A DNA stretch of 64,000 nt from a virus. The stretch lies in the IMG/VR virus record IMGVR_UViG_3300012949_000001. The stretch is one strand, 5' to 3'. Below are positions 1 to 52,279 of the stretch, in pieces (positions within the stretch are counted from its first letter, which is position 1; each line of letters begins with the position of its first letter). The position numbers were made by a program, and so were the translations under genes. A model generated the notes under the pieces. It was not told the origin of the DNA and did no database searches. It was given only the letters and a program-made list of their open reading frames with translations.

Positions 1-3000
1 CTATATCATAATAATTGCTAAGCACTTCTTTTGTATTAGCACTTTGTAAACTGGCATATATCTTATCATCAACAAGTATAGAGCTCTTAGCCACCTCTGC
101 AAATTTGCCAGACTTAATTGACATCTCTAGTTCATCACCAAGAGTTCTTTGAGCTTCGCTTTCATAGTATCTGTTTTCAGAAACAGCTCTTGAAAGCATG
201 TATAATCTTGTTCTGCTATGAACGTCATCATATGTTCCTCCCTTTCTTATTGCAGAAAGGTAAGTATCTTTATTCTTATTCATTATTGCATGGGCCATAA
301 TTGTGTCGCCATCGAAGTCCAGGTTAAATGCTTTCTGAGAAGCAGAAAGTGCAATTGCTGCATTACCTGTAAGCTGGTTATCAAGAATACCCCATACAGG
401 AACTGCAGAACCTTCCCTAATCATAGGGAAACGGCCTGATAATAGTATGTCACCTTGCTCTGACAGAAGCTTAACCATTTCATCTTTTGAGCTTACACCA
501 TATCTCTTTAATGATTCTTCTGCAAAGTAGCCCATCTTTTCAAATGCTTCTTCTGACAGTAACAGTGCATCTATATATCTTCCTTCGGCATAATGCTCAA
601 GATATGATTTGCCTTCGAACTTGGCTTCAGCAAGTGCCCTAATGCCATTAAGCCTCTTTAATTCTGCAAGTTTTTTGTCTGTTGGTAACTTAAGATACTC
701 TGATTCTGATAATCCAGCATATTCTCCACGGTGGATTGTAAAACCTGCACCTTTCAGATTTATAGACCGGTCAAGTCTGGTCTTAATCATTTCTCTTTGA
801 GTAGAATCAAGATATAACTTCTGCGAATCAACAAGTTCGTCAATAGCATCAACAACATTCTGCATATTCTCTGGAGTCTGATCATCCATCCAAGTCTGAT
901 ATCTGGATCTTAAAGCACCAAGCTTTTCAAAATAATCAGGAAGTATCAGAGAATCGCCTGTTGTTGCAAAAGGAGAACGAGGTACTGCCAAGTATCTTCT
1001 TGAACCGAACTTCTCTCCTAAGTCAAACACTGTATTATTCAAATATGGACTTGTTTCATCATACAGCTGAGCATCAAGTGTACCGCTGCCGCCTGGTGCA
1101 AAATCTGCAAAGTCCATTCGATTAAATTTAAACTTTTCACCAAGCTCATCAAGAGTTACACTTGTTCCTGCTTGGATCCTTTCATTGAATCTTAATGCTT
1201 CTGCAGTGCTTGCAGCTGTGTATGCTCTTTCTGCCCACTCTGCAGAAATGTCATCTCCTAATGTAAGTTTGCCATTCTGAGTGAAGAACTCTTTTATGTG
1301 TTTATATCTTGTATCTCTATCACTCACTGATGCCAGTTTCTTTTCTCCTGGCCTTGTAAATACCATGTTTTTATATAAGTCAGTGAAAGAGCTTAATACT
1401 GGTTGGTTAATAAATTCATCACGAAGAACTCCATTATCAGTGAACTCATTAAGAGCCTTATTGACTATTTCATCGTTTTTATCTCTTAAGTTGACTACAA
1501 ACTCATCATTTAGTACTTTTGCCCCAAGAAGGTTATGCATACGGTCTGAATATACAAAACCTCTATCCAAGAAGCCTTTTGTGGCCATTTCGTCTCTGAG
1601 TTCCTGAAGTTCTTTCCTTCTTGCTGTTAATTCCTGTTCTATATCTAGGAAATCTGCATCTGTTCTTTTTGCTTGTGCTCTTCTTTTTTCAAGTCTACGT
1701 ATTTCTTTTTGAAGAGAACTCATTGCGTTTTCTGCTTCTTCTGCATTGGTTATGCCTTTATAAGAACCACCGGTCCAGTCTATCTGTTCAGACATTTCTC
1801 CAAAGCCTGTATATACATCTATGGTCTTGTCGCCAAAACGTAACTGTGTCTTATCATATACAAGGCCTTCTTCTCCAAATAGTTCTTTTACTCCTTTTAG
1901 GCTTATATAGAAGTCCTTAAATTTGTTGCTTCCATTAATATATACAGTGCCATCACGTACCTCTGCCAAAGGCATAAGCTTCTTTACGTTTTCATCAGTA
2001 AGCATGCCCCTGTCTTTCAGTAATCCAATTGCAGAAGTAAATGCAACAGATACGTTCTCGTGCTTTGCTACATTCTGGTTTGTTATAGCAATTGCCTTAG
2101 TAGGCCCGAGAATTTGATTGAATATAAGATCGCCGACAGCATTCCATTCTCTCTCTGTCAAAGTCCTGATGTCTTCTATACCGGCTCTCTCCATTTCGTC
2201 AACAAGAGCTTCTGTATAATGCTTGCCAATATATTTTTCAAACCTTGTGCCTTTAAGCTTTCTTTCTATCTCCTTATTGAGTTCACCAAGTCTTACAGGA
2301 GAAGTATATGCTACCGACTTTTCGAGCTCACTGATTGTAATCTTGATGCCGTCTTTGTACTCATAAGGATCAACGTAATATTTATAGTCAAGATCGTACA
2401 TCTTTTTTAAGTAGCTTTTAACACTTTCAAGGTCTCTTCCTATGTTAAGAGGTAATGCTTTTTGGATTTCATCTTCTGATAATATATTGCCATATTTATC
2501 AAAGAAGCCTGCTCTTAACATACCAGAATATTTACTTGCAAACGGCTTCCTTGAATCAGAATATCCTTTTTGAGCGAATAAGATATCTCTGGCGTCTACT
2601 TCAACTCCAGAACCATATCTAAATTTACCATCCTGGAAGGAGAACACAACTTTGCTAAGCCTTTCTATTTCGCTTGCAAAATTGGCCTCTATTGCTCTGT
2701 TATCATTGATAACCTGTATCTGAGACTTGTTGAATATGTTTCTTGCTACTCTTGAATATAAGAGTGTTTGCTGCTCATATGTGCTTGTATGCAAAGCTTT
2801 TTCTTTTAACTCATTTGCTACTCTATCTATTTCTCTTTTTAAATCTTCAGAGCACAAATCATATTGCTGCTGTATTCCGAGAACAATCTTAGCCTGGATA
2901 ACGAACGGGTTTCTGTCACCTATAGGTTCTCCTGCGGCTAGATTAATAACTTCTTTTAATGTGTTAGAATCCATTGATACATATCTACCTGTAATCATAC

Positions 3001-6000
3001 CGGTCATTTTTACCTCAACATCTTTATTGTCGATGTTGTCTTTAAGCTTATATCCGGCACCATATATTACAGCATTCTTTCTTGCGTCAGAAACAAGAGG
3101 CTTAATATCTACACCCTTATCTCTTAGATATGCATCATGATTAATGGCTTTCTGTATCGCATCTACTCTATGATAGTACATGTTTGAGTACTGTGTAGGA
3201 TTATCACGAGACTGAGAGCCAAACGATGACATGTAACTTGGTGCAACCCTGCCGATTGATAATGTACCGCTATCATTTAAGTGAGTAGATTTGCCTGCCA
3301 CCATTGTGTTCACAAGTATCCAGTCGCTATCAGATCTTACCTCTTCAGGATACGTAGAACTTAACAATGGCATTAATAGCTTATTTATAAATATGCTTTC
3401 TTCTGATCTTGTAAGATTGCTCAACTTTACTTTCGACCTGTCACGATCATACTGTTTAATCTTATCGAATATACCCTTGATTTGTTTCTGCTCACTTGCA
3501 GTAAGCTGTGAAAAACCAGGAAGTCCCTCAGCAACACCACCTGCAGCTAATTTGTCAAGATAACCTGTAATGTCTTCGAAATAGGTTTCAAATTGCATCA
3601 TTGCTGCACCAGGGTTAAATATTTGTGCAGCTGGCAATCCTTCTCTAATCTGCTGATTCATTAAATTAAGAGCAGACTGGAAAGCCCTTGATTCATTTGA
3701 ACCTTTTCTCTTTGCTGCCTTAACAAAAGCAGTGAAGCCTCCATAACTATCAGCTATATCTCCAAGCTTTGAAGTGAACTCTATTTTTCCGTCTGCAAGA
3801 GCCTTCTTGCTGATAGCAGGACGAACAATATGGTTGGTTGTTCCAAGGTCAAAGTATAATGTGTTATTCTTTAATTTCAAAACAGGAAGCAGAAGAGATT
3901 CAGGATCCTGTCCCTTATTGCTTATGAATACTTCGCCAACAGCATTCTCCATTTCGTTAAATGAAAGCCATATATCTGATTCAGTTACTGCTGTCAGCAT
4001 ATCTCTTGCTACTTTTTCAACATCAGCTCTAGCAAGATTATAGTTAGCCATTAATGTTCGTTTATCAAAATCACTAAGATTCAACTTCTGAATATCTTCA
4101 GGAGTTACTTGTATCATTCGTTTAACAAGCTCGTTTACAGAATGCTGATCAACCTTGCTGTTTCGATCTAATGTTATTCTATTCTGAACGCTATTAATGG
4201 CGTTTTGTATGGTTTCTTTCATCCTGTCGTCAATGACTTCGTTAGCAAATCTGCTCGGTACATTTGCAACCTGAGTATTGATATTTCTGTTGATAATACC
4301 GAAGAGATTATCTTTTTCGCTTCTCTTTGTATATACAAAGTCATTGAGTTTTGTCATGATCTCTGCATACAACTCTTTTGGAGTTATCTTTTGCATCTTA
4401 TCCCTATTGTTTAATATATCGTTGAATACTCCTCGATAATCACTATCAGCATTAAGCCTTCTCATGAAGTCTATTAATGCTTGCTTACCTTGAGGCCCAT
4501 CTATATCTGCAGTGAGGCTTCCGTCATATTGATAATTGAACAGCTTTCTTAATATATTATCATCAAGTCTATGTTCACCAATATTGATTCTGTACAAATC
4601 ATCGTCCTTGATATTTCCGAACAGCTGTTTACCAGTAAGTTCTATATAATCAAGGTCTGAATCAAGAAGTAAGGTAGGTACAGAATCAAATGTAGTAGAT
4701 TGAGCTTTTCTGATTTCATTTACTGTATTCAACATTCTGTCTTTTGTGGTTGTTTGAAGAACATCACGAACAGCTAGCCTGAAAGCATCATTTCTCTTTA
4801 CTTTAGAAGCATAATCAGTACCAGGAATCTGCTCATCTATTATATTAGCTATTGTATCGAATAAAGGCATAAGGCCTTCAACATTATTTGAAGCCCATAA
4901 TAATCTGTTAACAGAGTTTGATAAAAGCTCTCTCTGACGGGTTATTGTAGAGTAGAACGTAAGACCGTCAAATGCACCTGCTATTTCGTCAAAACCACCG
5001 ACTGACTGACCTCTTGAAATTGCTTCAGACAAGAGTCTTGACATAGAAGCATTCGGATCTTCACCCTTATATTGCTCTCTTAAATCATTGAATACTTTGA
5101 CAAGTCTCTTATATCTGTCATAATCCATATCTCTGATGTAATTTGCTGCATATTCATTAGTTAATCTTTGAGTACTAAGATCAACATATTTTCTTAACAG
5201 CTCATCATCAGTAGACACTTTTTCTATTTGCTTAACTCCATCCTGAACAGTAGATAAAGCAAGAGCTTTTTCATTTCTGATTCCAGCTTTAGCTTTATAG
5301 TTTCTGAAGTCATGCAGATCTATATTTTCTCCTCTAGCAACAAGTTCGCCGACTTCAGTTAAATTATTAAGCTGTGCTTCTATTGGTGCCATGTTGCCGG
5401 AAACAAAATAGTAGTCCTGTCTTGCACCATAGGCATGAGGAACTTCTGTATCAAAAACAGGAGTTGCTTTTAATACATACAACATGCCGGTATTATATTC
5501 AGAGATCATGTTATCAATATTATCGCCGAACTCTTTTCTGAAATCTTCTGTTGTCTCAAATGTCTTCAAGTCAAAGCTATACAGAGCCCCTCTTTTGAGA
5601 CCTTGTGGTGATACATGAGACTTTCTTACGCTATCTCCGCTAATTTCATAGCCAGATAAGGTCTTATATGTATTAGTGAATTCGTCATAAACAAATCCAA
5701 GTACACCAGACTTATCAAAGCTTGAAAGAGATGACTGATCAACTCTATACAATTGCTTATGGCCACCAACAAATGTAGAAGGTGACTTATGGCGAATTGT
5801 ATCGAGCTTTGATATCATGTCTTGCAGCAATGTTGTGTTTGTGCTCGGTTCTACAATAGCAGAGAAGAGCTTACCTGATGTTTCAGCATCTTTAAATGCT
5901 GTATGAGCAACAAGGTCGCTAATATCTTCTCCATCGGCAAGATATGCTGACCTCAAATATTCCAGTGTCATCAAACCTGAATCTCTTGCTGCCTTATCTA

Positions 6001-7168
6001 AAACGCCATAATAGTTTCCGCCATACTTTGCATATATATGCTTTAATGTATCGAATGTATCAAATATGGCGGCCTGTGTTTCATCAATGTAAGCATTTGA
6101 ACCATATATTTGTGCAGCACGATTTAACATAGGGATATCAAACGTCCTTATGTTATGACCGGTTGTTGCCTTTATTTGAAATTGCTTTCCATTAACAGTA
6201 ACATTGCCTTTTGTTATACCTGTTGCTATTTGTTGCAGGTCAGCTTGTAATACTTTTCTCTGTTCATCTGTAAGCGTACCAAGCTTTTTAAGACCTTCAA
6301 TAGCATTCTCTATTGTAAGATCTATATCCTTAACCTCAACAGACTTTGTGATACGTCTTCTTGCTTCTCCAGGGATGTCTTCTATAGTTGCTTTGTTATA
6401 GAAGTTCAATCTGCGAATAATGATCTTATCTAAGTCAGACCATTCCTTATTACTCTTACCTTTAAGAGTCTCTAAGCGTTTCATTATCCGTTCGTATCTG
6501 TCTTTTTCAAGACCGACAACGTTAGAAATTGTTCCGGCGAATTCATTACCAGCACCATATATATTGTAAGCATACTCAGTTATACCAAGTAAATCATTAT
6601 ATCCATATTTATTCTTGCCACCAAGAGATTCTATGTCGAGAGTAGCAAAAAAGCCACTTGCACCATTAATTATATTATTAATAGCGACAGCATTCTCATA
6701 TAACTTTTCTGCACTTGATACTCCTCTCAGCTTTGTAAACTGAGTGTTGATTTGGAATGTTTTATCAATGAGCTTTAAGCCAGATTGTTGATTAGAGGCA
6801 ACAACCTTCTTAAAGGAATCCATGTCATTTATGATTTGATCAAAGAACTTATTATTTCTTGCAAGCCTCTCATAAAGCTTAATAAGCTGCTTTGTATCGT
6901 CTTCATAAATAGGATCCCTCTTAGCGTCTCCTATGCCCATGAATGTAGTTATATTTCCATATCTCTTATTCAGGAGGCTAAGTTCTTCATTATATAAAGG
7001 AGCTACATGTGCAAACATTTCTTCTGTTAACTTCTCAGTGTTGCCAACTAGCTCCTCTTCATGTCTACGCTGAATATATTCAGAGTATAATTCTCCTCTT
7101 CTCTTTTCTAAGTTCTTTATTCCGATCATCAAATCGGTTTGCATGTCATTATATTTGAATTTCGGCAT
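1..7168 (-). CDS. Giant putative virion RNA polymerase (two-barrel type) with N-terminal DEDDh 3'-5' exonuclease; 3'-partial, at least 2389 aa
   Basis: ATG at 7168 after RBS AGGTAGGTGA (MPKFKYNDMQ...). The track lists no minus-strand ORF here, consistent with no stop before the window edge, and the segments I translated were open. Exonuclease motifs: TLDIESLGG (D178,E180), GHNIRTFD (D344), AHTAFKD (H422,D427). RNAP motifs: GRFPMIREGS (R2246) and AFNLDFDGD (aa 2284-2288, nt 305-319). Confidence 0.85.
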   Translation of the reverse strand, partial: MPKFKYNDMQTDLMIGIKNLEKRRGELYSEYIQRRHEEELVGNTEKLTEEMFAHVAPLYNEELSLLNKRYGNITTFMGIGDAKRDPIYEDDTKQLIKLYERLARNNKFFDQIINDMDSFKKVVASNQQSGLKLIDKTFQINTQFTKLRGVSSAEKLYENAVAINNIINGASGFFATLDIESLGGKNKYGYNDLLGITEYAYNIYGAGNEFAGTISNVVGLEKDRYERIMKRLETLKGKSNKEWSDLDKIIIRRLNFYNKATIEDIPGEARRRITKSVEVKDIDLTIENAIEGLKKLGTLTDEQRKVLQADLQQIATGITKGNVTVNGKQFQIKATTGHNIRTFDIPMLNRAAQIYGSNAYIDETQAAIFDTFDTLKHIYAKYGGNYYGVLDKAARDSGLMTLEYLRSAYLADGEDISDLVAHTAFKDAETSGKLFSAIVEPSTNTTLLQDMISKLDTIRHKSPSTFVGGHKQLYRVDQSSLSSFDKSGVLGFVYDEFTNTYKTLSGYEISGDSVRKSHVSPQGLKRGALYSFDLKTFETTEDFRKEFGDNIDNMISEYNTGMLYVLKATPVFDTEVPHAYGARQDYYFVSGNMAPIEAQLNNLTEVGELVARGENIDLHDFRNYKAKAGIRNEKALALSTVQDGVKQIEKVSTDDELLRKYVDLSTQRLTNEYAANYIRDMDYDRYKRLVKVFNDLREQYKGEDPNASMSRLLSEAISRGQSVGGFDEIAGAFDGLTFYSTITRQRELLSNSVNRLLWASNNVEGLMPLFDTIANIIDEQIPGTDYASKVKRNDAFRLAVRDVLQTTTKDRMLNTVNEIRKAQSTTFDSVPTLLLDSDLDYIELTGKQLFGNIKDDDLYRINIGEHRLDDNILRKLFNYQYDGSLTADIDGPQGKQALIDFMRRLNADSDYRGVFNDILNNRDKMQKITPKELYAEIMTKLNDFVYTKRSEKDNLFGIINRNINTQVANVPSRFANEVIDDRMKETIQNAINSVQNRITLDRNSKVDQHSVNELVKRMIQVTPEDIQKLNLSDFDKRTLMANYNLARADVEKVARDMLTAVTESDIWLSFNEMENAVGEVFISNKGQDPESLLLPVLKLKNNTLYFDLGTTNHIVRPAISKKALADGKIEFTSKLGDIADSYGGFTAFVKAAKRKGSNESRAFQSALNLMNQQIREGLPAAQIFNPGAAMMQFETYFEDITGYLDKLAAGGVAEGLPGFSQLTASEQKQIKGIFDKIKQYDRDRSKVKLSNLTRSEESIFINKLLMPLLSSTYPEEVRSDSDWILVNTMVAGKSTHLNDSGTLSIGRVAPSYMSSFGSQSRDNPTQYSNMYYHRVDAIQKAINHDAYLRDKGVDIKPLVSDARKNAVIYGAGYKLKDNIDNKDVEVKMTGMITGRYVSMDSNTLKEVINLAAGEPIGDRNPFVIQAKIVLGIQQQYDLCSEDLKREIDRVANELKEKALHTSTYEQQTLLYSRVARNIFNKSQIQVINDNRAIEANFASEIERLSKVVFSFQDGKFRYGSGVEVDARDILFAQKGYSDSRKPFASKYSGMLRAGFFDKYGNILSEDEIQKALPLNIGRDLESVKSYLKKMYDLDYKYYVDPYEYKDGIKITISELEKSVAYTSPVRLGELNKEIERKLKGTRFEKYIGKHYTEALVDEMERAGIEDIRTLTEREWNAVGDLIFNQILGPTKAIAITNQNVAKHENVSVAFTSAIGLLKDRGMLTDENVKKLMPLAEVRDGTVYINGSNKFKDFYISLKGVKELFGEEGLVYDKTQLRFGDKTIDVYTGFGEMSEQIDWTGGSYKGITNAEEAENAMSSLQKEIRRLEKRRAQAKRTDADFLDIEQELTARRKELQELRDEMATKGFLDRGFVYSDRMHNLLGAKVLNDEFVVNLRDKNDEIVNKALNEFTDNGVLRDEFINQPVLSSFTDLYKNMVFTRPGEKKLASVSDRDTRYKHIKEFFTQNGKLTLGDDISAEWAERAYTAASTAEALRFNERIQAGTSVTLDELGEKFKFNRMDFADFAPGGSGTLDAQLYDETSPYLNNTVFDLGEKFGSRRYLAVPRSPFATTGDSLILPDYFEKLGALRSRYQTWMDDQTPENMQNVVDAIDELVDSQKLYLDSTQREMIKTRLDRSINLKGAGFTIHRGEYAGLSESEYLKLPTDKKLAELKRLNGIRALAEAKFEGKSYLEHYAEGRYIDALLLSEEAFEKMGYFAEESLKRYGVSSKDEMVKLLSEQGDILLSGRFPMIREGSAVPVWGILDNQLTGNAAIALSASQKAFNLDFDGDTIMAHAIMNKNKDTYLSAIRKGGTYDDVHSRTRLYMLSRAVSENRYYESEAQRTLGDELEMSIKSGKFAEVAKSSILVDDKIYASLQSANTKEVLSNYYDI

Positions 7169-7230
7169 TGAGTTCACCTACCTATTTATTCTCTATTATC
7201 ATAATACTTATTCTGTTGTGTTATATAATA

Positions 7231-7260
7231 AAAACCCATTGCGATTGTGCAATGGGTTTT
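7231..7260. terminator. Intrinsic terminator-like hairpin
   Basis: Perfect 12-bp stem AAAACCCATTGC/GCAATGGGTTTT with a 6-nt loop, just after the stop of 7268..7528. Confidence 0.7.
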
Positions 7261-7267
7261 ATATGTA

Positions 7268-7528
7268 TTATTCTTCTACTTCTTGTTCGACAATATTGCC
7301 GTCTTCATCTATCAGTCCTTGTTCTTGGCCTAGCTCTATGAGCAACCGGTACTCTCCTTGACATTTTGCCATTTCTGTTAGGATTTGTGAAATCTCGTCT
7401 TCCAGTCTGTTGATCTTATTCAGTGCATCTTCCTTGATTTCATTAATCTTATTTTCTCTTGCGGCTATTTCTGTCTTAAGCTCTTCAAATCTGGCTGTCG
7501 TTTCCTTCATTCTTAACAAGATATCCAT
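7268..7528 (-). CDS. Small coiled-coil protein, 86 aa
   Basis: ORF track; heptad-like E/K/L-rich sequence; RBS AGGGG upstream. Confidence 0.7.
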   Translation of the reverse strand: MDILLRMKETTARFEELKTEIAARENKINEIKEDALNKINRLEDEISQILTEMAKCQGEYRLLIELGQEQGLIDEDGNIVEQEVEE

Positions 7529-7562
7529 TTTATAATCCCCCTATTATATTGTGGTTAATTAT

Positions 7563-7592
7563 AGTATAACACATGAAAATTATGGTAGTCAA
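7563..7592 (-). promoter_or_regulatory. SigA-like promoter
   Basis: Minus strand TTGACT-18 nt-TATACT upstream of the 86-aa gene. Confidence 0.5.
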
Positions 7593-7599
7593 TATGATT

Positions 7600-9549
7600 T
7601 TATCCAATTACATTAATTTTTACAATTGGATTATCAATAAGAGAAGTTATTTCTATTCTATGTGTATACATATCAATATCATATTCGTTGGGTTTCATAA
7701 GTTTCATATGTCCATTAGCATCAAACTTCCATTCTAGCTGATCTGTTTCTGCTTTGTCTTGGTAAGTAGGCTTACTTAATACATAAGCAAATCGTAATTT
7801 CTCAGAATTCAGAGTATTAAAATCGATTGTTTCAATCAGTGAAGCAGGAATGCCATTAACACTAATTATCTCTTTTGCGTTATTAAGTTGTGCTTTTTCC
7901 TGCTCTGTCATAAGATTAAACTGTTTTATGGGAATAACACAATCTAATACAGCCCACGATGATGTATCTGTATTATAAGTAAGCCAAGTGTTTCCAGAGT
8001 CAATAGATACAGCTATTTTTATATCTCCGTCACCTGTTATATTTGACAGTACCTTAAAATAATCAATATTTTCTGCAATCGAAGTGATAATGTCATCATT
8101 GGCAATTATTAATTCTTTATTTGATTTCAAACCAGATATAGTAATTTTATTCACCAAATCTCTATTGTACACAATTTTTACATTAGAATTTTTAAATTTA
8201 TCAATAGGTTTAAATGCTGTTTCACCTATAGTAATTTCTTCTAATAACTCTTTTGGATTAAATGCGTAATCATCAAACAACTCTGGATTAAAATCTAATA
8301 TTGGATTATATATTTGGGCTTCTGTATCATAATATTCTTCTTTAATTGAGTAATATAAACCATTTTGTTTTAACAATATGGCGTTTTTAATAAGTGATAT
8401 AGTGACCGCAGTTAATATAGGAGATTCTGTAGTTCCTATACCAAGTTGACCATAAGTATTTAAACCCCATCCTTTTAATTTGTTATTATTTAATAAAACA
8501 ATAACAGGTGCAGTATTAAGAATTTCTTTAACGTCAGCAATAGGAAATTCAACTATATTAATACTCTGTGTGCCTGAATATCCCAATAATGGTCTTAAAT
8601 TAATATTATTGTTTCCGCAACCTTTTATTTTCCCATCGTTTAATAAAAATAATGTAAAAACACCGTCACTTTTGATGTCTTTTATATTGTCTATAGGAAT
8701 AGTAACTATAGAAGTTTGGTTTTTAGTATTTCCGATACCTAATTGCCCCTGAGTATTGCTTCCACAACCTTTTACTGTTCCATCATTTAATAAAAAGAAA
8801 GTATTAGTAGGAGAGCCATAAATCCATTTTACATTAGATATTGGTATAGTAGTTATTTCTAATTTACTGCTAGTGACGCCTACACCTAATTGTCCAGCAT
8901 TATTACTACCACAACCTTTTACTGTTCCGTCTGCAAGAAGAAAAAATGTATTAGCTGCTATTGAGAACACTTTTTTAACATTAGTAACAGAAATGTTGAC
9001 AGGGCTTTGTTGCCAGCCAGTTGTACCTATTCCTAATTCTCCATTAGTATTACTACCACAACCCTTTACTGTACCATCATTTAATAGAAAAAACGTATTA
9101 CTCCCATTATAATAGACAGAAACATCTATTACATTTGAAATTGGTATATCAACAATATTATATTGATTATTTTTATTGCCTATACCTAATTGACCGCTTC
9201 TATTATTACCACAGCCTTTAACCGTACCATCGTTTAATAAGAATATAGTATAGCTAGTGGTACAAAAAATCTCTTTTACATTAGATATAGGTATATCAAT
9301 TATATCGTATTGTGGATTAGTATTTCCGATACCTAATTCTCCATTAGTGTTTTGACCACAACCCTTTACAGTTCCATCGTGCAATAAGAAAAAAGTATTG
9401 TAGCTTGTTTCAATTATTTTCTTTACGTTTGATATTGGTAACTCAACAGGTGTTAATTGAACTTGTATATCATTACCAAGACCTAATTGACCATAGGAAT
9501 TATCTCCCCATACTTTAACTTTTCCATCTTGAGTTAAATATAATGCCAT
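7600..9549 (-). CDS. RCC1/BLIP-II repeat beta-propeller protein, probable receptor-binding protein
   Basis: Eight ~50-aa repeats of type FFLLNDGTVKGCGxNxxGQLGIG; lies next to the fibre gene. Confidence 0.8.
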   Translation of the reverse strand: MALYLTQDGKVKVWGDNSYGQLGLGNDIQVQLTPVELPISNVKKIIETSYNTFFLLHDGTVKGCGQNTNGELGIGNTNPQYDIIDIPISNVKEIFCTTSYTIFLLNDGTVKGCGNNRSGQLGIGNKNNQYNIVDIPISNVIDVSVYYNGSNTFFLLNDGTVKGCGSNTNGELGIGTTGWQQSPVNISVTNVKKVFSIAANTFFLLADGTVKGCGSNNAGQLGVGVTSSKLEITTIPISNVKWIYGSPTNTFFLLNDGTVKGCGSNTQGQLGIGNTKNQTSIVTIPIDNIKDIKSDGVFTLFLLNDGKIKGCGNNNINLRPLLGYSGTQSINIVEFPIADVKEILNTAPVIVLLNNNKLKGWGLNTYGQLGIGTTESPILTAVTISLIKNAILLKQNGLYYSIKEEYYDTEAQIYNPILDFNPELFDDYAFNPKELLEEITIGETAFKPIDKFKNSNVKIVYNRDLVNKITISGLKSNKELIIANDDIITSIAENIDYFKVLSNITGDGDIKIAVSIDSGNTWLTYNTDTSSWAVLDCVIPIKQFNLMTEQEKAQLNNAKEIISVNGIPASLIETIDFNTLNSEKLRFAYVLSKPTYQDKAETDQLEWKFDANGHMKLMKPNEYDIDMYTHRIEITSLIDNPIVKINVIG

Positions 9550-9551
9550 AA

Positions 9552-11024
9552 TTATATCACCTCTATATCGTTTATATTAACAAAACTGCTTACATCTATA
9601 TCTTCACTCTCGTATAATCCGTCAGAATTAAGTGTTATGTTGTATTCATAAGCATCTTTAATTTTCATAACGCCATTGAACACCACATTTTCAGAATCGT
9701 AATAGAAATTCTCTGAATCGGCATTGTCAAATGTCTTTAAAATCTCGATAATATCTTTTTCCCCTTCAATAAACTTAAATACTTGTATCAGAGTCTTATC
9801 TAAAATAAAGTCATTATCAGTAGCATTTATTTTAATAATGTTATTTTCTTGCACATTAAGACTTGTTTTTTGCCATACCTTTGTTGAACCACCGCCGCCT
9901 GTATTAGATATGGTTTTGTATGTACCATCATCAGATAAATACTTTGTACCGTCACCAGAGCCTGTAATGGTATCTAATAGATTTTTATTGACATGGCTGT
10001 GCAAATCATCATGTGTATGATTGACATGTGCTTTCACATCCAATTCACTTACGATTTTACTTGAACTGTAAGTTGTTGATGTTGAAACATTATTATCATC
10101 AATGTTTGCAGAACCATTACCTGATTCTATTTCTTTATAGGTACCATCATCGGCAAGAAACTTGTTGCCTGTACCATTCTGATCTATTAAAGAGGTTTTC
10201 TCTTCCCATTTATCAATTTGTTCTGTTGTTATGCTATCTAATACTTCTTTATTAGTATGTGTATGCAATTCAGTATGAGTATGTTCTATATTTGCTTTAG
10301 TGTTTAATTTCTGCTCTATTTTGCTTGAGCTATATGTTGTATTTGAAGAAACATTATCGTCATCAATATTTGCTCCATTATTACCTCCAGACACAATGGT
10401 TTTATATGTACCGTCATCAGCAAGATACTTTGTACCATCTCCATTGGTCTTTATTTTTGAAACCTTAAGTGCATCTGTGTTTGTGTAATCATTAGTAGAT
10501 AGACCTTTACCTTCTACCTTATCAACTTTGGTCCCTATAAGATTAAGGACTGTAGTTGAGAAGTTTGCGTCTTCACCTAAAGCCTTTGCAAGTTCATTAA
10601 GAGTGTTTAATGCTTCAGGAGCAGAATCTACTATTTCTGCTATCTTATCATCTACATATTCTTTAGAAGCAAAATCTTTAATAGCGTCGTTTACGGCTTC
10701 AATAATCTGATTAACATCTTGACTTATTTCAAGCTCTCTCCAGGTCAAGTTATTATTTTTCTTGTATAAAATAAAGAGTTGTGTTCTATCATCATCAAAG
10801 CATATTGCCATGTTACCTTCAGCAAGAAACTGCTTATAGTTTGTGCTTATATTTTCTAGTTCTTCTGAATTATGTATAATAAATATGCGTGTTGGATTAT
10901 CAAGTTTATCAATCACTTCATCCTTTTGTACAGGCACTATGGTTTCATTTAGTCTTTTGGCACGAATAAAATACTCAAAGCGATTACGCTCATCAAGCTT
11001 GATAAGTTCATATTGTGTAGACAT
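9552..11024 (-). CDS. Tail fibre protein
   Basis: IVDSAPEALNTLNELAKALGEDANF, a typical fibre motif; internal repeats GxGxKYLxDDGTYK (x3), NIDDxNVSxxTTYSSSKI (x2) and His-rich HTH segments (x2). Confidence 0.75.
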   Translation of the reverse strand: MSTQYELIKLDERNRFEYFIRAKRLNETIVPVQKDEVIDKLDNPTRIFIIHNSEELENISTNYKQFLAEGNMAICFDDDRTQLFILYKKNNNLTWRELEISQDVNQIIEAVNDAIKDFASKEYVDDKIAEIVDSAPEALNTLNELAKALGEDANFSTTVLNLIGTKVDKVEGKGLSTNDYTNTDALKVSKIKTNGDGTKYLADDGTYKTIVSGGNNGANIDDDNVSSNTTYSSSKIEQKLNTKANIEHTHTELHTHTNKEVLDSITTEQIDKWEEKTSLIDQNGTGNKFLADDGTYKEIESGNGSANIDDNNVSTSTTYSSSKIVSELDVKAHVNHTHDDLHSHVNKNLLDTITGSGDGTKYLSDDGTYKTISNTGGGGSTKVWQKTSLNVQENNIIKINATDNDFILDKTLIQVFKFIEGEKDIIEILKTFDNADSENFYYDSENVVFNGVMKIKDAYEYNITLNSDGLYESEDIDVSSFVNINDIEVI

Positions 11025-11076
11025 TATTTTGTTATCTCCTTTCTTATTGATATATTAAGAAGTAGACATAAAATAC

Positions 11077-11481
11077 CTACTTCTTAATGTTTAGCTCAAC
11101 TAATGTTATTTTCTTTTTCTTGGTTTTATTGTTTTTCTTTTTTGTGTCTTCATCGTCATCATCGTCGTCGTCATCACCGATTAATTTATCTATAACCTTT
11201 GTGGCTATTTTAAGAGATTTCTTATAACCGGCATATCCTGCAATTCCTGAGCCTCCTAAGACTACGTAATGATTATCTTTACCAACGGTGCCCTGCAAGA
11301 TTAGCCCAATCATTACTCCGCCGAATCCTGATCCCATCCATGTGATCACAAATCTTGAAAGTTGTAATGCCTCTTCATCATCAATTTCTTTTTTCATTTC
11401 TCCCAGTAAGGCTCCAATATAGGCGACTAAAATTATTTGTACTACTTGATACTGAATAATTTCAAGAAGAAAATTATACAC
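11077..11481 (-). CDS. Probable holin
   Basis: 134 aa, 2-3 hydrophobic helices, highly charged C-terminal tail; adjacent to tail genes. Confidence 0.55.
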   Translation of the reverse strand: MYNFLLEIIQYQVVQIILVAYIGALLGEMKKEIDDEEALQLSRFVITWMGSGFGGVMIGLILQGTVGKDNHYVVLGGSGIAGYAGYKKSLKIATKVIDKLIGDDDDDDDDEDTKKKNNKTKKKKITLVELNIKK

Positions 11482-11502
11482 AACTTCACCACCCTTGGAG
11501 TT

Positions 11503-12609
11503 TTATGTCTTCAAATCACTGTCCTTCATGTATGTTTTGCACTGATAGGCATTAATTCTTAACACGAATATAGCGAGCAATATTACTATTAGTGAGATGA
11601 TAACACTTATAAATGGGAACAGAATTTCATATTCCACAGTATCAGAAAACTTCTGCTGAGTTTTCAGGAATTCCTCCTTTACTTTCTTAAAAGCTGCACT
11701 TATTTCTGATTCTTGTGCTCCAAGGACAACTGTAATTTGCATAGATTGGCCTTCTACACCAACAGCTTCATATGGTAGAATAATCTTCTCTTGAAATTCT
11801 CTGTGATAGTCTCCAAGAGGATATTTGGCAAAGTTCTCTGCTTCATCTCCCATATCAATAGGCTCAGAAAAATAATATACTATTTTACTATTGCGATCAG
11901 TGTCTTTTCTTAATGTGATTTCATTCTCTATGACACGTTTACAAGCTTCAGGATTTTTGTTGGCCGGATGTAAATAATCTAACTGTATGTACCGTTTTTC
12001 ATCTGGTCCTAAGACTTCAACCGTGTCTTTATTATCAGAGTTATCTATTATAATTTCCCCAGTAAAAGAATCAAAAGCTAAGATAGTGCCAGTGCTGCCA
12101 AATGCTTTTATTGGAGTAGCTATAATGTCAAGAATAGCCTTTACTTGTTCTTTGTTCCATTGCTGTCTGCAGTTACTTAATAAAATTTCCCCTGTCTTTT
12201 TATCTTTTATGTTGAAGTAATTAAGATACTTCTCTACAGTCATTGTCTTGCTGTCATATGCGATTGTATTACCATCGGCATCGGCATATATATACCTTCC
12301 ATAACGGTCTTTTAATATAAGCTCTGTGTTTTTGTTCGTGATAAGATACTGCACCCATGACTGTCTTATTGATGATAATACGAGCCTAAGTTGTGGTCTG
12401 ATAATATCATCCACAAATGCTTGCTGCGTATCAACATACACTTCAGAGTATCCATTGTTGATATCATCAAAATCTTCTCCGAGATTTGATATCTCATAAA
12501 ATAGAAATAGCTGTACAGTCAATAGGAAAATAAACACCTTAGATATCGCTTTCTTTTGCTTTTCTAATTTTTCAGGGGTTGCCTTTGAAGTCTTTTTCAC
12601 ATTTACCAA
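11503..12609 (-). CDS. Two-TM membrane protein with ~290-aa extracytoplasmic domain (sensor/Cache-like topology)
   Basis: TM1 VFIFLLTVQLFLFY near the N-terminus; TM2 ILFPFISVIISLIVILLAIFVL near the C-terminus; short basic cytoplasmic ends. Confidence 0.55.
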   Translation of the reverse strand: MVNVKKTSKATPEKLEKQKKAISKVFIFLLTVQLFLFYEISNLGEDFDDINNGYSEVYVDTQQAFVDDIIRPQLRLVLSSIRQSWVQYLITNKNTELILKDRYGRYIYADADGNTIAYDSKTMTVEKYLNYFNIKDKKTGEILLSNCRQQWNKEQVKAILDIIATPIKAFGSTGTILAFDSFTGEIIIDNSDNKDTVEVLGPDEKRYIQLDYLHPANKNPEACKRVIENEITLRKDTDRNSKIVYYFSEPIDMGDEAENFAKYPLGDYHREFQEKIILPYEAVGVEGQSMQITVVLGAQESEISAAFKKVKEEFLKTQQKFSDTVEYEILFPFISVIISLIVILLAIFVLRINAYQCKTYMKDSDLKT

Positions 12610-12623
12610 TCTCCTTTCAGTTA

Positions 12624-15600
12624 CTAATAGAAGATCCTCCCAGTAATTGAGTTTACTTTTTGTTTTATTTTATATTCATTTATCCTTATAATGTTTGCAA
12701 CCATCTGAATTCCAGGTTGTGATGAAGGCTCTATGCTTACATCAACTCCTATCAATCCGGCTCCATTTAATGCAGCAAGAAGATTTTTACGTAATTCCAA
12801 TGGACTTGTTTGTCTGTCATAATCTACTTCTGGGGCCATTATTGTTTCTATATCTTCTGCTTCTGATTCATAGAATCCGAAATCTGATAAGAGCATCCCC
12901 TCATTTTTGATTGTCTTAACAGCAACCTTATCTAAATCAATGTCAGGTTGCCAGCCGGCCCAGAATACTCCTGGCAGCTGATGATTAGCAAAGAATTCTC
13001 TATTAGTTTTGACCTTAGTTGGCTCTTCACCCCAGAGGATTTGAAGAACCTTTCTTCTATAAGGGGAAATGTATTTAAGAATTTCTTTTCTACGTTTAGG
13101 ATCTGTTTCTTGTCCAAATTCAAGAATATAATCTCGTTCATATTTCGGAACTGCTCTTAGTACTTGAGACCATGTAGCGTTTTTCTTAAGACCATATACT
13201 GTAGATTCTGCAGCTTGCTTATATGCTATGGCCGCTTTGGTGTATTTTCCTGCTTTTAAGATTTGCTCTGGATAAGATAATGCTTCGAGTTTCGCATCTA
13301 TATCTGCGAGCATTGCCTCGCGACGTTCATCGCCTTCCAGATATGTATTACTTATCAATTGCTTGTTTGCTAACAACTGTTGTCTGATTTTTTCTCTTTT
13401 TTCTGAGTCGTATTCATACTTATTGATAAGTCTTTTGATATCTACATTTTCTTTTCTTTTAGCCAGTTTTGCAGCTTTTTCGTAAAGACCCATGTACTTA
13501 ATATATTTGAGTCTGTCGAAGTATTCTTCAATTTCCCATCTCTTCTTGACCTTTTCAGGAATCCATGGGCCAAACATATTATCCAAATCAAGAGAAGGAT
13601 TCTTTAATGCAGAAAGTGCAAGCCCTGCTGCCGCACCTATTGCCGCACCACGTTTACCTGTGCCTTTCCAGAATTGTTCTGCTATTTCTCTACCGATTAT
13701 TGCTCCTGCACCAGTTGAGAATATAGGATTATTTGAATTTGTATAAGCATATCCTGCTAATCCTATAGCAGCTCCAATTCTTGCTCCCGCATTTACGTAT
13801 TTACCATCAAGTCGTGTAATGAATCCTCCTACCGCACCTGCAAAAGCTCCAGGGTTAGAAAGAAGGAATGCTACTTTTGATACACCCTTTGCTATTGCTC
13901 CGGCCGATTCTGTTTTAGCTATCTTTTCTGCTATTACCCATGAAGTCATTCCAATAGCAGCATGTGTATGGCTTACGCTAAATGCTCTATTTATTGCAGG
14001 GATGACGAATCCTTGAATAGGATGGCTCCATGTAGCATATGGTACTCCATAGATATGTTCATCTTTTAATGATTCGAGAGGAGTATTAATCCTTAAGAAC
14101 TTTCTATGGATTAACGGAATAGGAGCATGAGCTATTAATTCATTTATCTTTGCTCTATCTATCTGAGACTGTGAGTATCTTGCATGTAGTGCAATAGGAC
14201 TATCATCTTTTGACTTCTCTGCCCTGCCGCTGTTCAGAAGTCGTCTGTTTAGATTCTCACCTTCAGCTATAACTATTGCACTGATTGATTTTTGATTTGC
14301 ATCGTTACGATCGAATCTTAATCTTACATTAGTACCTGGAGCCAGAAAATCCTTGAGAGAACCTTCTGTAAATTTAACTCCTGCTACTTTATATCTGACG
14401 TCATTTCCTACGAGTGTAAATCCATGATTATCTACCGATTCTACAACACCAGAAGTCTCATCAAGTTTTACTCCCAGGAACTTATAAGGATAGAAATCGT
14501 GTTGCTTAGATTGCTGATTAACACGCTCTCTTATTTCCTCCATCTCTTTTCTGAGATTAGGATCCTGTACTGTCTTATTTGCGATATCTCTCCATAATCT
14601 ATATTCACTTGACCATGGAGCTATATCTGCAAGAATCTTCATTCTATCAAAAGCACCATATCTGCCGTACTGATCTGGATGTAGTTGATTTATTGATTCA
14701 TATGCTTTGCCAGGGAGCCTCATTTCGCCTTTTGGCAACTTCTCATAAGGATCTCCAAGCTTAAATCTTTCAGGCATCCAATCAGGCATTGTGTTTCTGA
14801 TAGGATTGATCCTATTAATATTATGGTCTTCATGTGGAATGAAACGTCTTACTATTTCCATGAATTCTCCACCAAGACCGCCAAGAGATTCATCCCAGAA
14901 TCGTCTTGTAAATGAAGCCATTCTATCAGCACTCTGTAATCTTGCTGATTTCCTTGTAGGCAACAATTCATCAATTAAGAAACCATACATACCAGATAAT
15001 TCTTTTGCTGAATATCCAGCGTCTTCTAAGAACTGTCTGGTTGAGGTTACATTTCTAAGATCTGCAGCAAAGTTAGGATCTACAATTAAGCTCTTATCGC
15101 GAGCAGATGTCTTAAATATTGCGTCAGGAGAAATAATTCCTTCATTCCTATCCGGTGCATTAGATATTGCTTTGGCTTTTATACTTTCGTTTACAGAGGA
15201 TATAATATCTATAGGGATCATGTTTCTTACGACCCCTGCAATTATATTTCCTCTGTCTGCTGCCAATTGAACCCTTTGTGTAACTGGAAGGTTAGGATTG
15301 ATATTATTTACGTCAATCCTTTCTCCAGTTGCTATAGCTATTGCTCTTGCTTGCAACATATCATGAGTCGGTTCATATTCAGACACAGACATTGCTTGAT
15401 ATTCTGAGCCTGTTACGTAATAATTCGATACTTTACCTCCTGATATATCTAAAGAAAGAACAGTTTCAGAACCAGTAGGAGCTCCTAATGGTGTATAAGA
15501 AACAGGAGTAAATGTTCCGGTTCCGTCTAACTTAACAAGACTATTATTAGCATCGGCCTTTTCCCTTATCTCCTGGTTTCTTTGTGCTATTAATGTTCTT

Positions 15601-18600
15601 ACATCTACAAGGGTATTTCCCAACTCTGCCTGATGCATTCTCCTTTGAGGCTTTATTATTTGTCCTATAGTAGGATTTAAAATAGCACCCCAAGGAGTTC
15701 CTTCCTCAAACAGCTTACCTGTTACTGGATAAGGCCGATCCCAATAATGCTTTCTCTCTAACCAATATGGATCGAGTAATGCTCTGATAGGAGAGAATGG
15801 ATGACGTGGAGTAGGTATCCATGAATGTTGCCATTTCTCTTTAGAGCTTCCATATACACCTATATCTCTCCAGTCACTATGAGCTCTTCTTAAATAGTTA
15901 GGCTGGAAATAATCTATCTTACTGCCACGGTATTCAGAGTCTGAACCGAAGCTCCACCATCTGCTCTTACGAACAGGAGTATAGCCTCTTTCATACCACT
16001 CTTTACGCTCTTCATAACTATGATATGGCTGGCCATTATTCAAATACTGTCTAATTGGATTAAGTTCATATGCACTCTTCCTGAATGAAGTAAGACCTAT
16101 TGCGTCTGAAATTCTTCTACCGAACAAGTCTAAGTTGGCAAGAGAATTAGCTGCAGCTCCTCTTAAACTTGTACCGGTAAAGTTCTTGGCCTCATAATCA
16201 AGATAACTGAGAGTAGTTAATGCACCTGCTATAGGAAGCACTCTCTTAAGCATAATATTCTTAGCCAGATCTATAGTGCTTCCTGTTGATTTTGCAGTAA
16301 AGCCAAGACCTATATCAGATACACCCTCAACCAGACGATGGAGCATAAAGTAAGGGAACATTGTGGCAGATGTTACGTCTTCAAGATTATCTCTGCCCGC
16401 AACGAATTGCTTAAAGAATGCTTTTACTTTAGTCTGGTCATTAATATTCTGCAGCATATCTAATACGCCAACAGATTTCTGCATTGTTGTATATCTTCCA
16501 AGTCTGTGACCAGGAATTATATTCTGATCTCTTTGGAAACCTCGCTGTATAACAGAAGCATGTTCTTTAACCATTGTTTCAATATTTTCTCTGAATGCTT
16601 CTGCGAACTCTTGATCTTCCATTCCAAGGCCGGAGAATAAAGATTGTACATTAAGAGCTCTCTTTGCTATATCATTTATATCCTGGACTCCAGAGCCTGT
16701 GTAGTTTTTCATTGTGTCTTTCAGTATAGCCCAGTTTGCCAGGTATTTTGCCTCTTTAAGTCTTGTACTTTCTAATCCGGCCGATTCAAGAAGTTTAATG
16801 ACTGACAGATTAGAACCTTCTATATCTCTATAAGACAAAAAGGCCTCCTTAGCGATTTCTTTACGAATCATTTCAGTAAAGCTAACCGCTCTGGTGGTAC
16901 CTATTATTGCTTTATTATCAGAAACAATAGACATTGCTCTTCTTGCAGAGTCAGAGTCCTTCAGATATCTTTTTACTAAGGACTGCAGCTCTTTATTCTT
17001 AAACGTAGAGAAGTTATGCTGCATCAATTCATTAATCATATCTTCATCTTTCATATTGAGCAGCTTTAACATGTCTTTTGCATTACTTATATGATTGTCA
17101 GGTATTACTTCTAATAATTTGTTTACAGTTGTTCTGTCAAGCTTTCTTGTGGTCTGATTCAAGAAACTATCAAGTTTCTTTGCCTTATCAAAATATTGTC
17201 CTATGTATTGTTCTATGGCTTTCTTTTCTTGAGAGTCAGTAGCATCTTGTAGACGCTGTATAGCGAACATTAATTCATTTTCGTCCATTGTTAAAAATGA
17301 ATTTACAAGATTTCTACTCCAACGAGGATCATTAAACTTAGTAAATATAGATGTAAATCTCTTAAGCTTGCTTGGTTCTGCATTATATCCAAGCTCAAGA
17401 GCATTTCTTATTCTGCTATTCCCAAGTGGCTTTCTATCTACGTCTCCTACTATGCTTTTAAGCAATCTGTTTGCTGTGCCATGTTCTCCTGATATAAGAT
17501 AAGTATTATCCAGATCAGATAAGTATTCTAATGTATTATCTTTAAGATTAATCCTGTAAGTCTTATCGAGTATTCTTACATATGGATTATTAAGCAGAAC
17601 AGAATCATGGCCTTCAGCAAGTTTAGCAAGTATAGGATCTGCAGAACCAGGACCTATATAACGATATATAGGAGCCTTCTTTATTTCAAGATAGTCTCTG
17701 GTCTTAAACAACTTGCCAGGCAATGTCTGAGCAAACTCTTCAAGAAATCTATTCTTAAGAGAAGCTGCTTCTACAAATGAATATAATTCTCCAGCTTCGT
17801 TTATTCTTAATGCATATGGATCAACAAATATGTCTCCATATCTTGCATCTTTCTCTACAAGCTTAGCTAGAACATCCATTGCATTCTCTTGAGCTAATCT
17901 GTCTGTCCTACCCTTTTCATCACTTAAGCCAAATATTTTAAATTCGCCAAGCTTATCTCTATTTTCAAGCAAATCGCTTACGGTAGCTGCTCTGTCACCA
18001 GTTATTTTATCAAATAACTTTTGTTTTGATGTTTCTTCGCCTCTTCTACCGTAATAACTTGCAAGGTTTTCAAAATCAAATTTTGAAAGCATCTCGTCTG
18101 CAAGAGCCTTATGCTCTTCAACGAATTGAGCTGCCTCTTCTTTTCTCCTTTCAAGAGCATCTGTAAGCATATCGAGCATTTGTGCTTGTTGCTCTTCATT
18201 GAAGATATTGTTCTTGAAATGTCTTTCTAAGAAATCAGAACTGAATTCATAAGCATCATTATTATAAGAAATGGCACTGTTTATGTGGTCAACAAAATCA
18301 TCTATAACATACTCTGCTCTTCTGGTAAAGTCAGGATTATCTGTTCCAAACAGATCCTGGAATTGGTGCTTAAGAGCTGAACGAATATTTGCATCATCAT
18401 AGATAGGATAAAGACGAGAAGATTTATTTTGAGCCATTTGATACATTTCTGTAATGGCATTGAAAAGGCTCTCCGGACGATCTGAACGGAGAGTAATCTT
18501 ATCATCTACTTCAGAGAATGCTTTTTTAAACCCTGATATTGCATTAGATACAAACTTTGCATCCATGTCTTTCAGGGCTGTTTTAGACACAGTATCCATT

Positions 18601-49819: not shown

Positions 49820-49833
49820 AAGATAGTTAATAC

Positions 49834-49872
49834 AGAGGGCCATCTAAAACAGGTGGCCCTCTTAAAATTTGA
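49834..49872 (+). repeat. GAGGG/CCCTC hairpin element H1
   Basis: 12-bp stem AGAGGGCCATCT/AGGTGGCCCTCT, 5-nt loop, then TAAAATTTGA and RBS. Confidence 0.75.
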
Positions 49873-49889
49873 GAGGAGGTGAGAAAGAG

Positions 49890-50039
49890 ATGATAATCAT
49901 GGAAGTAACTATCCCAATCAAATCACAACCACAACAAGTACCACAGCAAAGTAAACCTAAGAAGAGACGCAAAGGAAAGAATGAAGAAGTTTTGACATTC
50001 AAGCAGTTACTGGACATGGCAATGAAAAAGTACGAATAA
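49890..50039 (+). CDS. Small basic protein, 49 aa (not in track)
   Basis: RBS GAGGAGGTG; MIIMEVTIPIKSQPQQVPQQSKPKKRRKGKNEEVLTFKQLLDMAMKKYE. Confidence 0.6.
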   Translation: MIIMEVTIPIKSQPQQVPQQSKPKKRRKGKNEEVLTFKQLLDMAMKKYE

Positions 50040-50069
50040 CATTTAAGAGAAGGAAAGGAGAAAACACGT

Positions 50070-50345
50070 ATGATTACAACAAGAACAACAAATGAACTCA
50101 AAGAGGTAGCAGCAAGAGCACTGGAGAATTACTTAGAGGAACTGTTTAATGAGGCTATGGAGACATATGACACCAACAGAGAACTGTTATTATTATCTTT
50201 CTATTTCGTAGGTTGTGAATCTATTAAGAAGGGAACTTTCATGATTGTCAACAATGAAGACCTTGCATACATAGTAGTTCCTGGCATTCCATTTGATGTG
50301 ACAAAAGATTGGAGCTTTAGAAACACAGAAAGGAGATGGTCATAA
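50070..50345 (+). CDS. Hypothetical protein, 91 aa
   Basis: RBS AAAGGAG. Confidence 0.65.
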   Translation: MITTRTTNELKEVAARALENYLEELFNEAMETYDTNRELLLLSFYFVGCESIKKGTFMIVNNEDLAYIVVPGIPFDVTKDWSFRNTERRWS

Positions 50346-50695: not shown

Positions 50696-50710
50696 TAGGA
50701 GGTGATTGTT

Positions 50711-50788
50711 GTGAAGAAGGGCGAAATTGTGACAGTGGCTGCATTGTTCGCAATTGCAGCAATTCTATTGATTCTGTCAACCAGATAA
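50711..50788 (+). CDS. Single-TM micropeptide, 25 aa (not in track)
   Basis: RBS AGGAGGTG, GTG start; MKKGEIVTVAALFAIAAILLILSTR. Confidence 0.55.
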   Translation: MKKGEIVTVAALFAIAAILLILSTR

Positions 50789-50805
50789 TACAAAGGAGAG
50801 TGCAT

Positions 50806-51433: not shown

Positions 51434-51442
51434 CACATAATA

Positions 51443-52261: not shown

Positions 52262-52279
52262 CCAGATAAACAAAATTAA

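Follow-up and report, generated by a model that had tools for sequence, protein, structure and literature searches.

A giant phage protein predicted to join a DEDDh exonuclease to a single-chain two-barrel RNA polymerase

Virion-delivered two-barrel RNA polymerases (RNAPs) are known experimentally from few phage groups, namely phiKZ and AR9, whose enzymes are multisubunit, and phages in which crAss-like gp66 and P23-45 gp96 were described. In P23-45, the virion RNAP gp96 transcribes the pre-early genes, including the gene of a second, non-virion RNAP (PMC10770324). Bacillus phage 0305phi8-36 offers a second point of comparison. Its gp146, encoded between gp145 and gp147, was assigned as the tape measure and is a virion protein by mass spectrometry, its gp147 is a T4-gp27-like baseplate hub, and its gp99 is a YonO/RdRP-type polymerase (PMC2147016). 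The 0305phi8-36 protein gp145 is also a virion protein by mass spectrometry, and a 2021 jumbo-phage survey gives only the YonO-like enzyme for this phage group. Here, we analyzed a window of 64,000 nucleotides (nt), the whole stretch taken from IMG/VR virus record IMGVR_UViG_3300012949_000001, and describe a giant minus-strand gene at its left end. The best explanation overall, which we consider probable, is that its product combines an exonuclease with a single-chain two-barrel RNAP, is delivered by the virion, and transcribes the first phage genes.

An earlier sequence-only reading of this window had proposed one minus-strand open reading frame (ORF) that starts at ATG 7168, runs off the left edge and encodes at least 2389 amino acids (aa). 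The ORF listing and the translation bear this out: minus-strand positions 2..7177 form a single open frame that is open at its 3' end, and translation from ATG 7168 gives 2389 residues free of stops. The start codon is preceded by a Shine-Dalgarno sequence (AGGTAGGTGA) and is also used in the Joint Genome Institute (JGI) gene call on an independent contig. Over 11,224 nt (window positions 3649-14872), that contig shows 4 mismatches, and the giant protein is identical over its first 1173 residues. Because the independent contig carries the same DNA and the same protein over this length, the giant frame is not an assembly artefact.

Homologs were collected by an exhaustive HMMER search with residues 1190-2389 of the giant protein as the query, which returned 66 representative clusters (50% identity). 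Nearly all members are 2800-3050 aa long, and they are collinear with the giant protein from the N-terminus. The profile match stops ~450 residues short of their C-termini; since the homologs extend that far past the match, about 450 residues of the giant protein are taken to lie beyond the window, and the complete protein is expected to measure ~2850 aa. An exact 46-mer found no match in viral and metagenome contigs, so that the missing C-terminus was not recovered, and the only other contig with the neighbouring gene ends at residue 1173. No relative was confirmed in IMG/VR. Near-identical DNA is present in bioreactor, manure, sludge and biogas-fermenter metagenomes.

The family is invisible to Pfam, PHROGs and BLAST annotation. 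Searching 50,697 GenBank phage records by tblastn with three family members gave no match, and one usable peptide pattern found no family member in the GTDB species-representative genomes; the full barrel alignment is too divergent to yield a search pattern. In a full-length alignment of 47 sequences, with 17-27% identity to the query, the invariant columns are few and fall into three sets. These are D178, E180, G219, D344, D370, H422 and D427 in the N-terminal part, R1321, K1609, E1616, K1617, G1628, E1674 and H1703 in the beta-like part, and R2246, P2248, S2254, D2284, D2286, G2287 and D2288 in the beta-prime-like part, and they are the only ones in ~2400 aligned positions. All 63 members that have the motif pair carry D-x-D-G-D, and the spacing from the arginine to the first aspartate is 38 residues in 58 of them. 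Judged from these alignments, the catalytic residue sets are kept beyond chance, being invariant in 47-63 homologs at ~20% overall identity.

The individual residues on which the sequence-only reading relied are all exact: D178/E180 (DIESLGG), D344 (FDIPM) and H422/D427 (AHTAFKD) for the exonuclease, and E1465 (STYEQQ), K1781 (GDK), K1804 (YKG), R2246 (GRFPMIREGS) and D2284/2286/2288 (DFDGD) for the polymerase, with the spacing of 38 from R2246 to D2284 confirmed. Their conservation differs. E1465 is kept in 41 of the 47 members. K1781 and K1804, which had been put forward as the beta-type lysines, occur in 6 and 5 of the 47, respectively, and were dropped for this lack of conservation; K1609 and K1617 are invariant instead (47/47). 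The latter two lie 8 residues apart in a family motif G-H-K-x7-K-[ST], with the same spacing as in the beta motif GDKxxxRHGNKG.

For the N-terminal half, a full DEDDh exonuclease had been claimed, and this holds. Residues ~165-460 show an RNase H-like DnaQ fold, and D178, E180, D344, H422 and D427 are invariant in 49/49 aligned members. The exonuclease region has a weak PHROG match to 'DNA polymerase exonuclease subunit' (E 7.6e-5), and the family profile, searched against PDB sequences, finds ExoI (E 0.003), with the Exo II and Exo III motifs aligned, followed by RNase T and the exonuclease domains of the T7 and B-family polymerases. By structure, the nearest neighbours are Pol III epsilon, DinG, ExoI and the exonuclease domains of B-family polymerases. 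Compared with known DEDDh exonucleases (DnaQ, ExoI, RNase T, TREX1 and the DinG N-terminal domain), the domain differs in a ~100-aa helical insertion that separates Exo I from Exo II and in being fused to an RNAP, not to a DNA polymerase or helicase. For residues 461-1289, which form a confident model, structure comparison gives nothing specific.

For the C-terminal half, a structure model of residues 1290-2389 was built from a 61-sequence alignment and reached a predicted local distance difference test score of 89.3 and a predicted template modelling score (pTM) of 0.89. Absence of a double-psi beta-barrel around DFDGD had been named beforehand as the outcome that would speak against a polymerase; the barrel was found, with a Foldseek probability of ~1 to RNAP beta-prime. 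Foldseek gave 183 PDB matches at E<=1e-3, and the best 50 of the 183 are all RNAP beta-prime. A second barrel, of the beta/Rpb2 type, was found N-terminal to the beta-prime barrel. The best ESM Atlas matches are single-chain clusters with PF00562 (Rpb2_6) and PF00623 (Rpb1_2), mostly from phages, with 598 residues aligned across model positions 38-1060. In AFDB, entries named 'DNA-directed RNA polymerase' match over model positions 174-1058 (E 8e-9), and beta-prime entries match over ~640-1040. The BFVD matches are led by uncharacterised giants, one labelled 'minor tail protein' (1216 columns) and one from phage ME3; crAss protein cr130_1 (E 2e-4) and RNAP subunits of jumbo phages and nucleocytoplasmic large DNA viruses come next. 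The PDB, AFDB and ESM Atlas matches thus support the earlier proposal of a single-chain RNAP, and the giant protein, as modelled, carries on one chain first a beta-like and then a beta-prime-like module.

Around the catalytic loop, the predicted structure consists of strands at 2240-2245, 2255-2262 and 2270-2274, a helix at 2275-2281, the DFDGD loop, and a strand at 2289-2294. This order agrees with what we take to be that of the beta-prime double-psi barrel (NRxPxLHxxS...NADFDGD). There is no PF05183 match, and the listed structure matches are all canonical beta/beta-prime or fused Rpb2_6+Rpb1_2 enzymes. QDE-1/RdRP enzymes are absent among the structure matches listed, an absence that carries little weight because the lists are saturated by cellular RNAP entries. 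Beyond the part contained in the window, the further ~450 residues of the homologs carry conserved AKxxKxxIGExN and EExxISxK motifs.

These findings also bear on whether the enzyme makes RNA. A two-barrel DNA polymerase or primase-like enzyme with an epsilon-type proofreader, analogous to PolD and used for genome end repair, fill-in or priming, would account for the structural neighbours of the exonuclease, which are DNA-polymerase proofreaders and DNA exonucleases, and fusion of a polymerase to a DEDD exonuclease is a hallmark of DNA polymerases. Moreover, conservation is not strict at the position that matches beta-prime N458, a ribose-sensing residue (K in 26 and N in 19 of 63 members). In contrast, the arginine equivalent to beta-prime R425, which contacts the 2'-OH of the nucleoside triphosphate, is invariant in the family. 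The best listed PDB, AFDB and ESM Atlas matches are all RNAPs, PolD DP2 is not among the matches listed, and relatives encode a conventional Pol III alpha. We therefore regard a PolD analogue as very unlikely.

The strand that carries the giant gene also carries genes for the large terminase, portal, protease/scaffold, major capsid protein, tail sheath, tube paralogs, a tail fibre and an RCC1-repeat tail protein, and the giant gene lies at the distal end of the tail module. The terminase most resembles that of Moorella phage MTATph1 (41%), followed by those of several 217-234-kb Bacillus phages including 0305phi8-36, and it is more distantly like that of Acinetobacter phage ME3. By gene content and terminase similarity, the phage is a contractile-tailed relative of 0305phi8-36 and MTATph1. 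A crAss-like identity is ruled out by the sheath together with the 0305phi8-36-like virion module.

Three relatives in which the gene neighbourhood could be compared place the family member in the same position. Contigs L001 and L004 both run from tail-fibre genes through a small ORF to the family member (2823 and 2836 aa, respectively), which is followed by a giant of ~3040 aa and then a 123-aa gene. In L003, a large gene likewise lies downstream of the family member, with replication genes just upstream. The downstream gene is homologous to 0305phi8-36 gp147 in 3/3 relatives (E 1e-62, 4e-63 and 9e-20). Because it stands directly upstream of the hub gene in all three, the exonuclease-polymerase giant occupies the tape-measure slot, the position held in the related virion module of 0305phi8-36 by gp146 (2537 aa, 'hypothetical tape measure protein'), between the gp145 and gp147 homologs. 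The two proteins differ in that gp146 is not homologous to the giant, has no DxDGD and gives no significant match to the family profile; thus, 0305phi8-36 has no exonuclease-polymerase giant. Homology of the giant to orfB (see below), to the second giant of the relatives, or to gp145 or gp146 was rejected by sequence comparison.

Several side observations concern these genes. Gp146 (L005 41624-49237) has an Exo I-like DIETTG at residue 1223 and a weak match to the family profile (E 0.008) between the Exo I and Exo II regions, and it may contain an exonuclease domain that is either degenerate or distant. The gp147-like giant of the relatives (~3040 aa) is ~1100 aa longer than gp147 and belongs to PHROG 20474, labelled 'endolysin'. 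Relative to the 0305phi8-36 order, inserted fibre genes separate the gp145 homolog from the giant.

Occupancy of this slot raises the possibility that the giant is a structural tail protein, either a tape measure or an internal protein, in which the polymerase and exonuclease domains are exapted, non-catalytic scaffolds. The slot of gp146 (PMC2147016), the Gly-rich hydrophobic C-terminal segment of the homologs, which precedes a conserved terminal domain, and the 'minor tail protein' label of the nearest viral structure would fit such a role. However, invariance is confined to the catalytic residues of the two enzymes, as under purifying selection on catalysis, the ~2300 modelled residues form globular alpha/beta structures and not the extended helical ruler of tape measures, and there is no significant similarity to gp146. 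A purely structural role thus seems scarcely plausible.

The same neighbourhood bears on packaging. An active exonuclease-RNAP fusion could instead remain unpackaged and act as a non-virion middle or late transcriptase that merely sits at the end of the structural operon. Consistent with this, the giant gene is preceded by its own terminator and an A/T-rich spacer and so possibly forms a separate transcription unit, replication genes lie just upstream in L003, and packaging is deduced indirectly. However, the placement upstream of the hub gene is kept in 3/3 relatives, the gene is co-oriented with all virion genes, and the non-structural arm apparently already encodes a YonO-like polymerase. 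Furthermore, the characterised giant RNAP fusions (P23-45 gp96, crAss gp66 and N4 gp50) are all virion proteins (PMC10770324). An unpackaged transcriptase is therefore, in our view, quite unlikely, and a virion-delivered polymerase is the reading that we retain.

Among virion RNAPs, P23-45 gp96 offers a close parallel. Each is a tail-module giant that occupies the tape-measure slot and carries a single-chain two-barrel RNAP with a DFDGD loop, both RNAPs are undetectable by sequence similarity to known RNAPs, and both phages have a second, non-virion two-barrel RNAP, which in the present phage is putative (PMC10770324). They differ in that P23-45 has a long non-contractile tail and the phage described here has a sheath, and no sequence similarity was detected between the two proteins. 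The RNAP of gp96 is N-terminal (DFDGD at 779 of 5002) whereas the giant carries its RNAP in the C-terminal half (2284 of ~2850). An exonuclease is absent from gp96, and the best matches of the giant are canonical beta/beta-prime and fused Rpb2_6+Rpb1_2 enzymes. Like the giant, phi14:2 gp66 is a large protein encoded among structural genes with a DFDxD/DxDGD two-barrel core (bioRxiv 10.1101/2020.03.07.982082). It is virion-packaged, which for the giant is a deduction, comes from an unrelated phage type and has no exonuclease; one weak structural match (cr130_1, E 2e-4) and no sequence match connect the two. Single-chain beta-beta' phage RNAPs (PF00562 and PF00623, ~900-1000 aa) and the split RNAPs of AR9 and phiKZ are Pfam-recognisable, about one-third the size, and free of an exonuclease. 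Gp66 is closer to QDE-1/RdRP-type enzymes. Given the lack of sequence homology to characterised virion RNAPs, the giant family is, on this basis, separate from the gp96 and gp66 families. Full-text literature searches found crAss gp66, P23-45 gp96 and phiKZ/AR9, with no exonuclease-fused form and no description of the giant family; in the searched literature, the strictly conserved DEDDh fusion is without a described counterpart among DNA-dependent RNAPs.

A two-polymerase scheme is also suggested by the opposite arm of the window. There, the first of two adjacent plus-strand ORFs has an ESM Atlas feature score of 0.96 to PF05183 (RdRP/YonO-type) phage clusters. Pfam, PHROG, tblastn and PDB sequence searches of this putative second polymerase gave no match. 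The phage thus appears to encode a second polymerase of the YonO/RdRP type on its non-structural arm, and this putative ORF together with the giant polymerase parallels the two-RNAP scheme of P23-45 (PMC10770324); a counterpart of the putative ORF in 0305phi8-36 would be gp99 (PMC2147016). A simple k-mer count over the plus-strand intergenic regions of 49820-63817 gave no convincing phage-polymerase promoter motif beyond ribosome-binding sites and a hairpin arm. Three of these regions share the 9-mers GGCCCTCTT/GCCCTCTTA, and two share (A)CAGGTGGCCCT; they are hairpin arms.

On the P23-45 precedent, we propose the following course of events. A few copies of the giant protein would be built into the tail or virion and would reach the cell interior together with the DNA or before it, as has been proposed for P23-45 gp96. 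The two barrels would form one active site, in which D2284, D2286 and D2288 would hold Mg ions and K1609 and K1617 would contact phosphates, and transcription of the first phage genes by this enzyme would not depend on the host RNAP. Its early targets would probably include the YonO/RdRP-like polymerase gene on the opposite arm, whose product would then take over. The hairpin upstream of the giant gene may limit read-through into it, and such terminator read-through would give low expression, as expected for a low-copy virion protein.

The exonuclease would act in cis on a 3' end. As no full-length member departs from either catalytic set, both activities appear to be needed together. Our favoured guess, a tentative one, is that the target is the 3' end of nascent or backtracked RNA, so that the domain would provide proofreading or a rescue that replaces Gre/TFIIS. 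The main alternative, which we find doubtful, is the 3' DNA end of the entering genome. That the exonuclease and the polymerase share one 3' end, either in a DNA-dependent two-barrel RNAP with a covalent proofreader or in a virion-delivered PolD-like DNA synthesis, is unlikely. In coronaviruses, the DEDDh 3'-5' exonuclease nsp14 ExoN works with the RNA-synthesising polymerase nsp12 in proofreading. This is a functional analogy alone, with no homology implied, as the coronavirus polymerase has a right-hand RdRp fold, the two activities reside on separate polypeptides, and the coronavirus is an RNA virus.

Several points weigh against a packaged exonuclease-RNAP. The giant protein has no Pfam match, phmmer and the family profile find no RNAP among PDB sequences, and member-wise Pfam searches of the two barrel regions give only single noise-level matches (Rpb1_2 and LEF-9). 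The window edge falls 101 residues past DFDGD, so that any bridge-helix and trigger-loop equivalents would lie beyond it. Motif shape and pTM suggest that K1609/K1617 are the equivalents of beta K1065/K1073 and lie near the aspartates. Packaging and injection are suggested by the position in the tail module and tape-measure slot and by analogy to P23-45 gp96 (PMC10770324), and the role of the exonuclease is guesswork. None of the RNA runs carries near-identical DNA of the giant gene. Given the sigma70-like promoter nearby, some of the genes, at least, are probably transcribed by host RNAP. As for the slot itself, an ordinary tail lumen has no room for a folded enzyme of ~2850 aa, and orfB (12624-18752, minus strand, 2042 aa) is an alternative tape-measure candidate. 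The latter follows the tube/chaperone region, is homologous to the virion protein gp145 of 0305phi8-36 (E 2e-67), and has no Pfam or PHROG match.

The features of the giant gene and its surroundings are collected in Table 1. The small ORF that separates the giant gene from the RCC1 tail gene has counterparts in place in two relatives (72 aa in L001 and 94 aa in L004); its role could be that of a chaperone or of an element controlling expression. Upstream, 7600-9549 (minus strand) encodes a 649-aa RCC1/WD40-like beta-propeller tail protein (PHROG 7220, E 1e-111) and adjoins the tail-fibre gene at 9552-11024. Farther upstream, 20166-21257 and 21261-24035 (minus strand) both match phrog_9206, 'major head protein'. 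The 0305phi8-36 proteins gp140 and gp141 bear the same product name, yet their notes say tail tube and tube paralog. The two genes in the window are probably tube paralogs as well, and the PHROG label looks like a propagated misannotation.

Table 1 Features of the giant gene, its upstream region, the putative second polymerase and the hub genes of relatives. Positions refer to the window unless a contig is named.
Feature	Position	Strand	Remarks
Giant ORF, residues 1-2389	2..7168	-	Truncated by the window edge; ~450 more residues expected from homologs
N-terminal region, residues 1-164	6677..7168	-	Mostly helical, low-confidence model, without assigned fold
DEDDh (DnaQ-fold) 3'-5' exonuclease domain, residues ~165-460	5789..6676	-	Profile, structure and invariance
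Exo I, D178-I-E180	6629..6637	-	Invariant in 49/49 aligned members
Exo II, D344 (GHNIRTFD)	6137..6139	-	Invariant
Exo III, H422-x4-D427 (AHTAFKD), 'h' subtype	5888..5905	-	Invariant
Middle region, residues 461-1289	3302..5788	-	Confident mixed alpha/beta model, without assigned fold
RNAP beta/Rpb2-like module (predicted), residues 1290-1937	1358..3301	-	Holds R1321, STYEQ (1462-1466), K1609/K1617, E1674 and H1703
Lysine pair K1609...E1616-K1617, on a predicted beta hairpin	2318..2344	-	Invariant
RNAP beta-prime-like module (predicted), residues ~1938-2389	2..1357	-	Includes the catalytic double-psi beta-barrel; continues past the window
R2246-F-P-M-I-R-E-G-S2254, first strand of beta-prime-type barrel	407..433	-	R, P and S invariant; cf. 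NRxPxLHxxS
Catalytic metal-binding loop (predicted) D2284-F-D-G-D2288	305..319	-	D-x-D-G-D in 63/63 members
Intrinsic-terminator-like hairpin	7231..7260	-	12-bp stem and T-run; 63 nt upstream of the giant ATG
86-aa ORF	7268..7528	-	Between RCC1 tail gene and giant gene; charged coiled coil by eye
Sigma70-like promoter, strong	7563-7592	-	TTGACT-18-TATACT with TG; precedes the 86-aa ORF
Putative second polymerase	54004-56052, 56059-57726	+	ESM Atlas feature search (first ORF)
gp147-like gene after family member	L001 13447-22596; L004 18543-27662; L003 19127-23896

If the exonuclease and the polymerase do share one RNA 3' end, the giant protein would be the first DNA-dependent two-barrel RNAP with a dedicated, covalently attached exonuclease for proofreading or backtrack rescue. 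It raises the question of whether a separate exonuclease domain serves a cellular-type RNAP core in fidelity, in backtrack rescue, or in template preparation. The compact single-chain beta-beta' core would also provide material for the study of a minimal two-barrel enzyme and its evolution. More broadly, this group of ~66 clusters, tied to Firmicute phages by terminase, would carry the idea of a polymerase in the tape-measure slot from one Thermus siphovirus to diverse large contractile-tailed phages.

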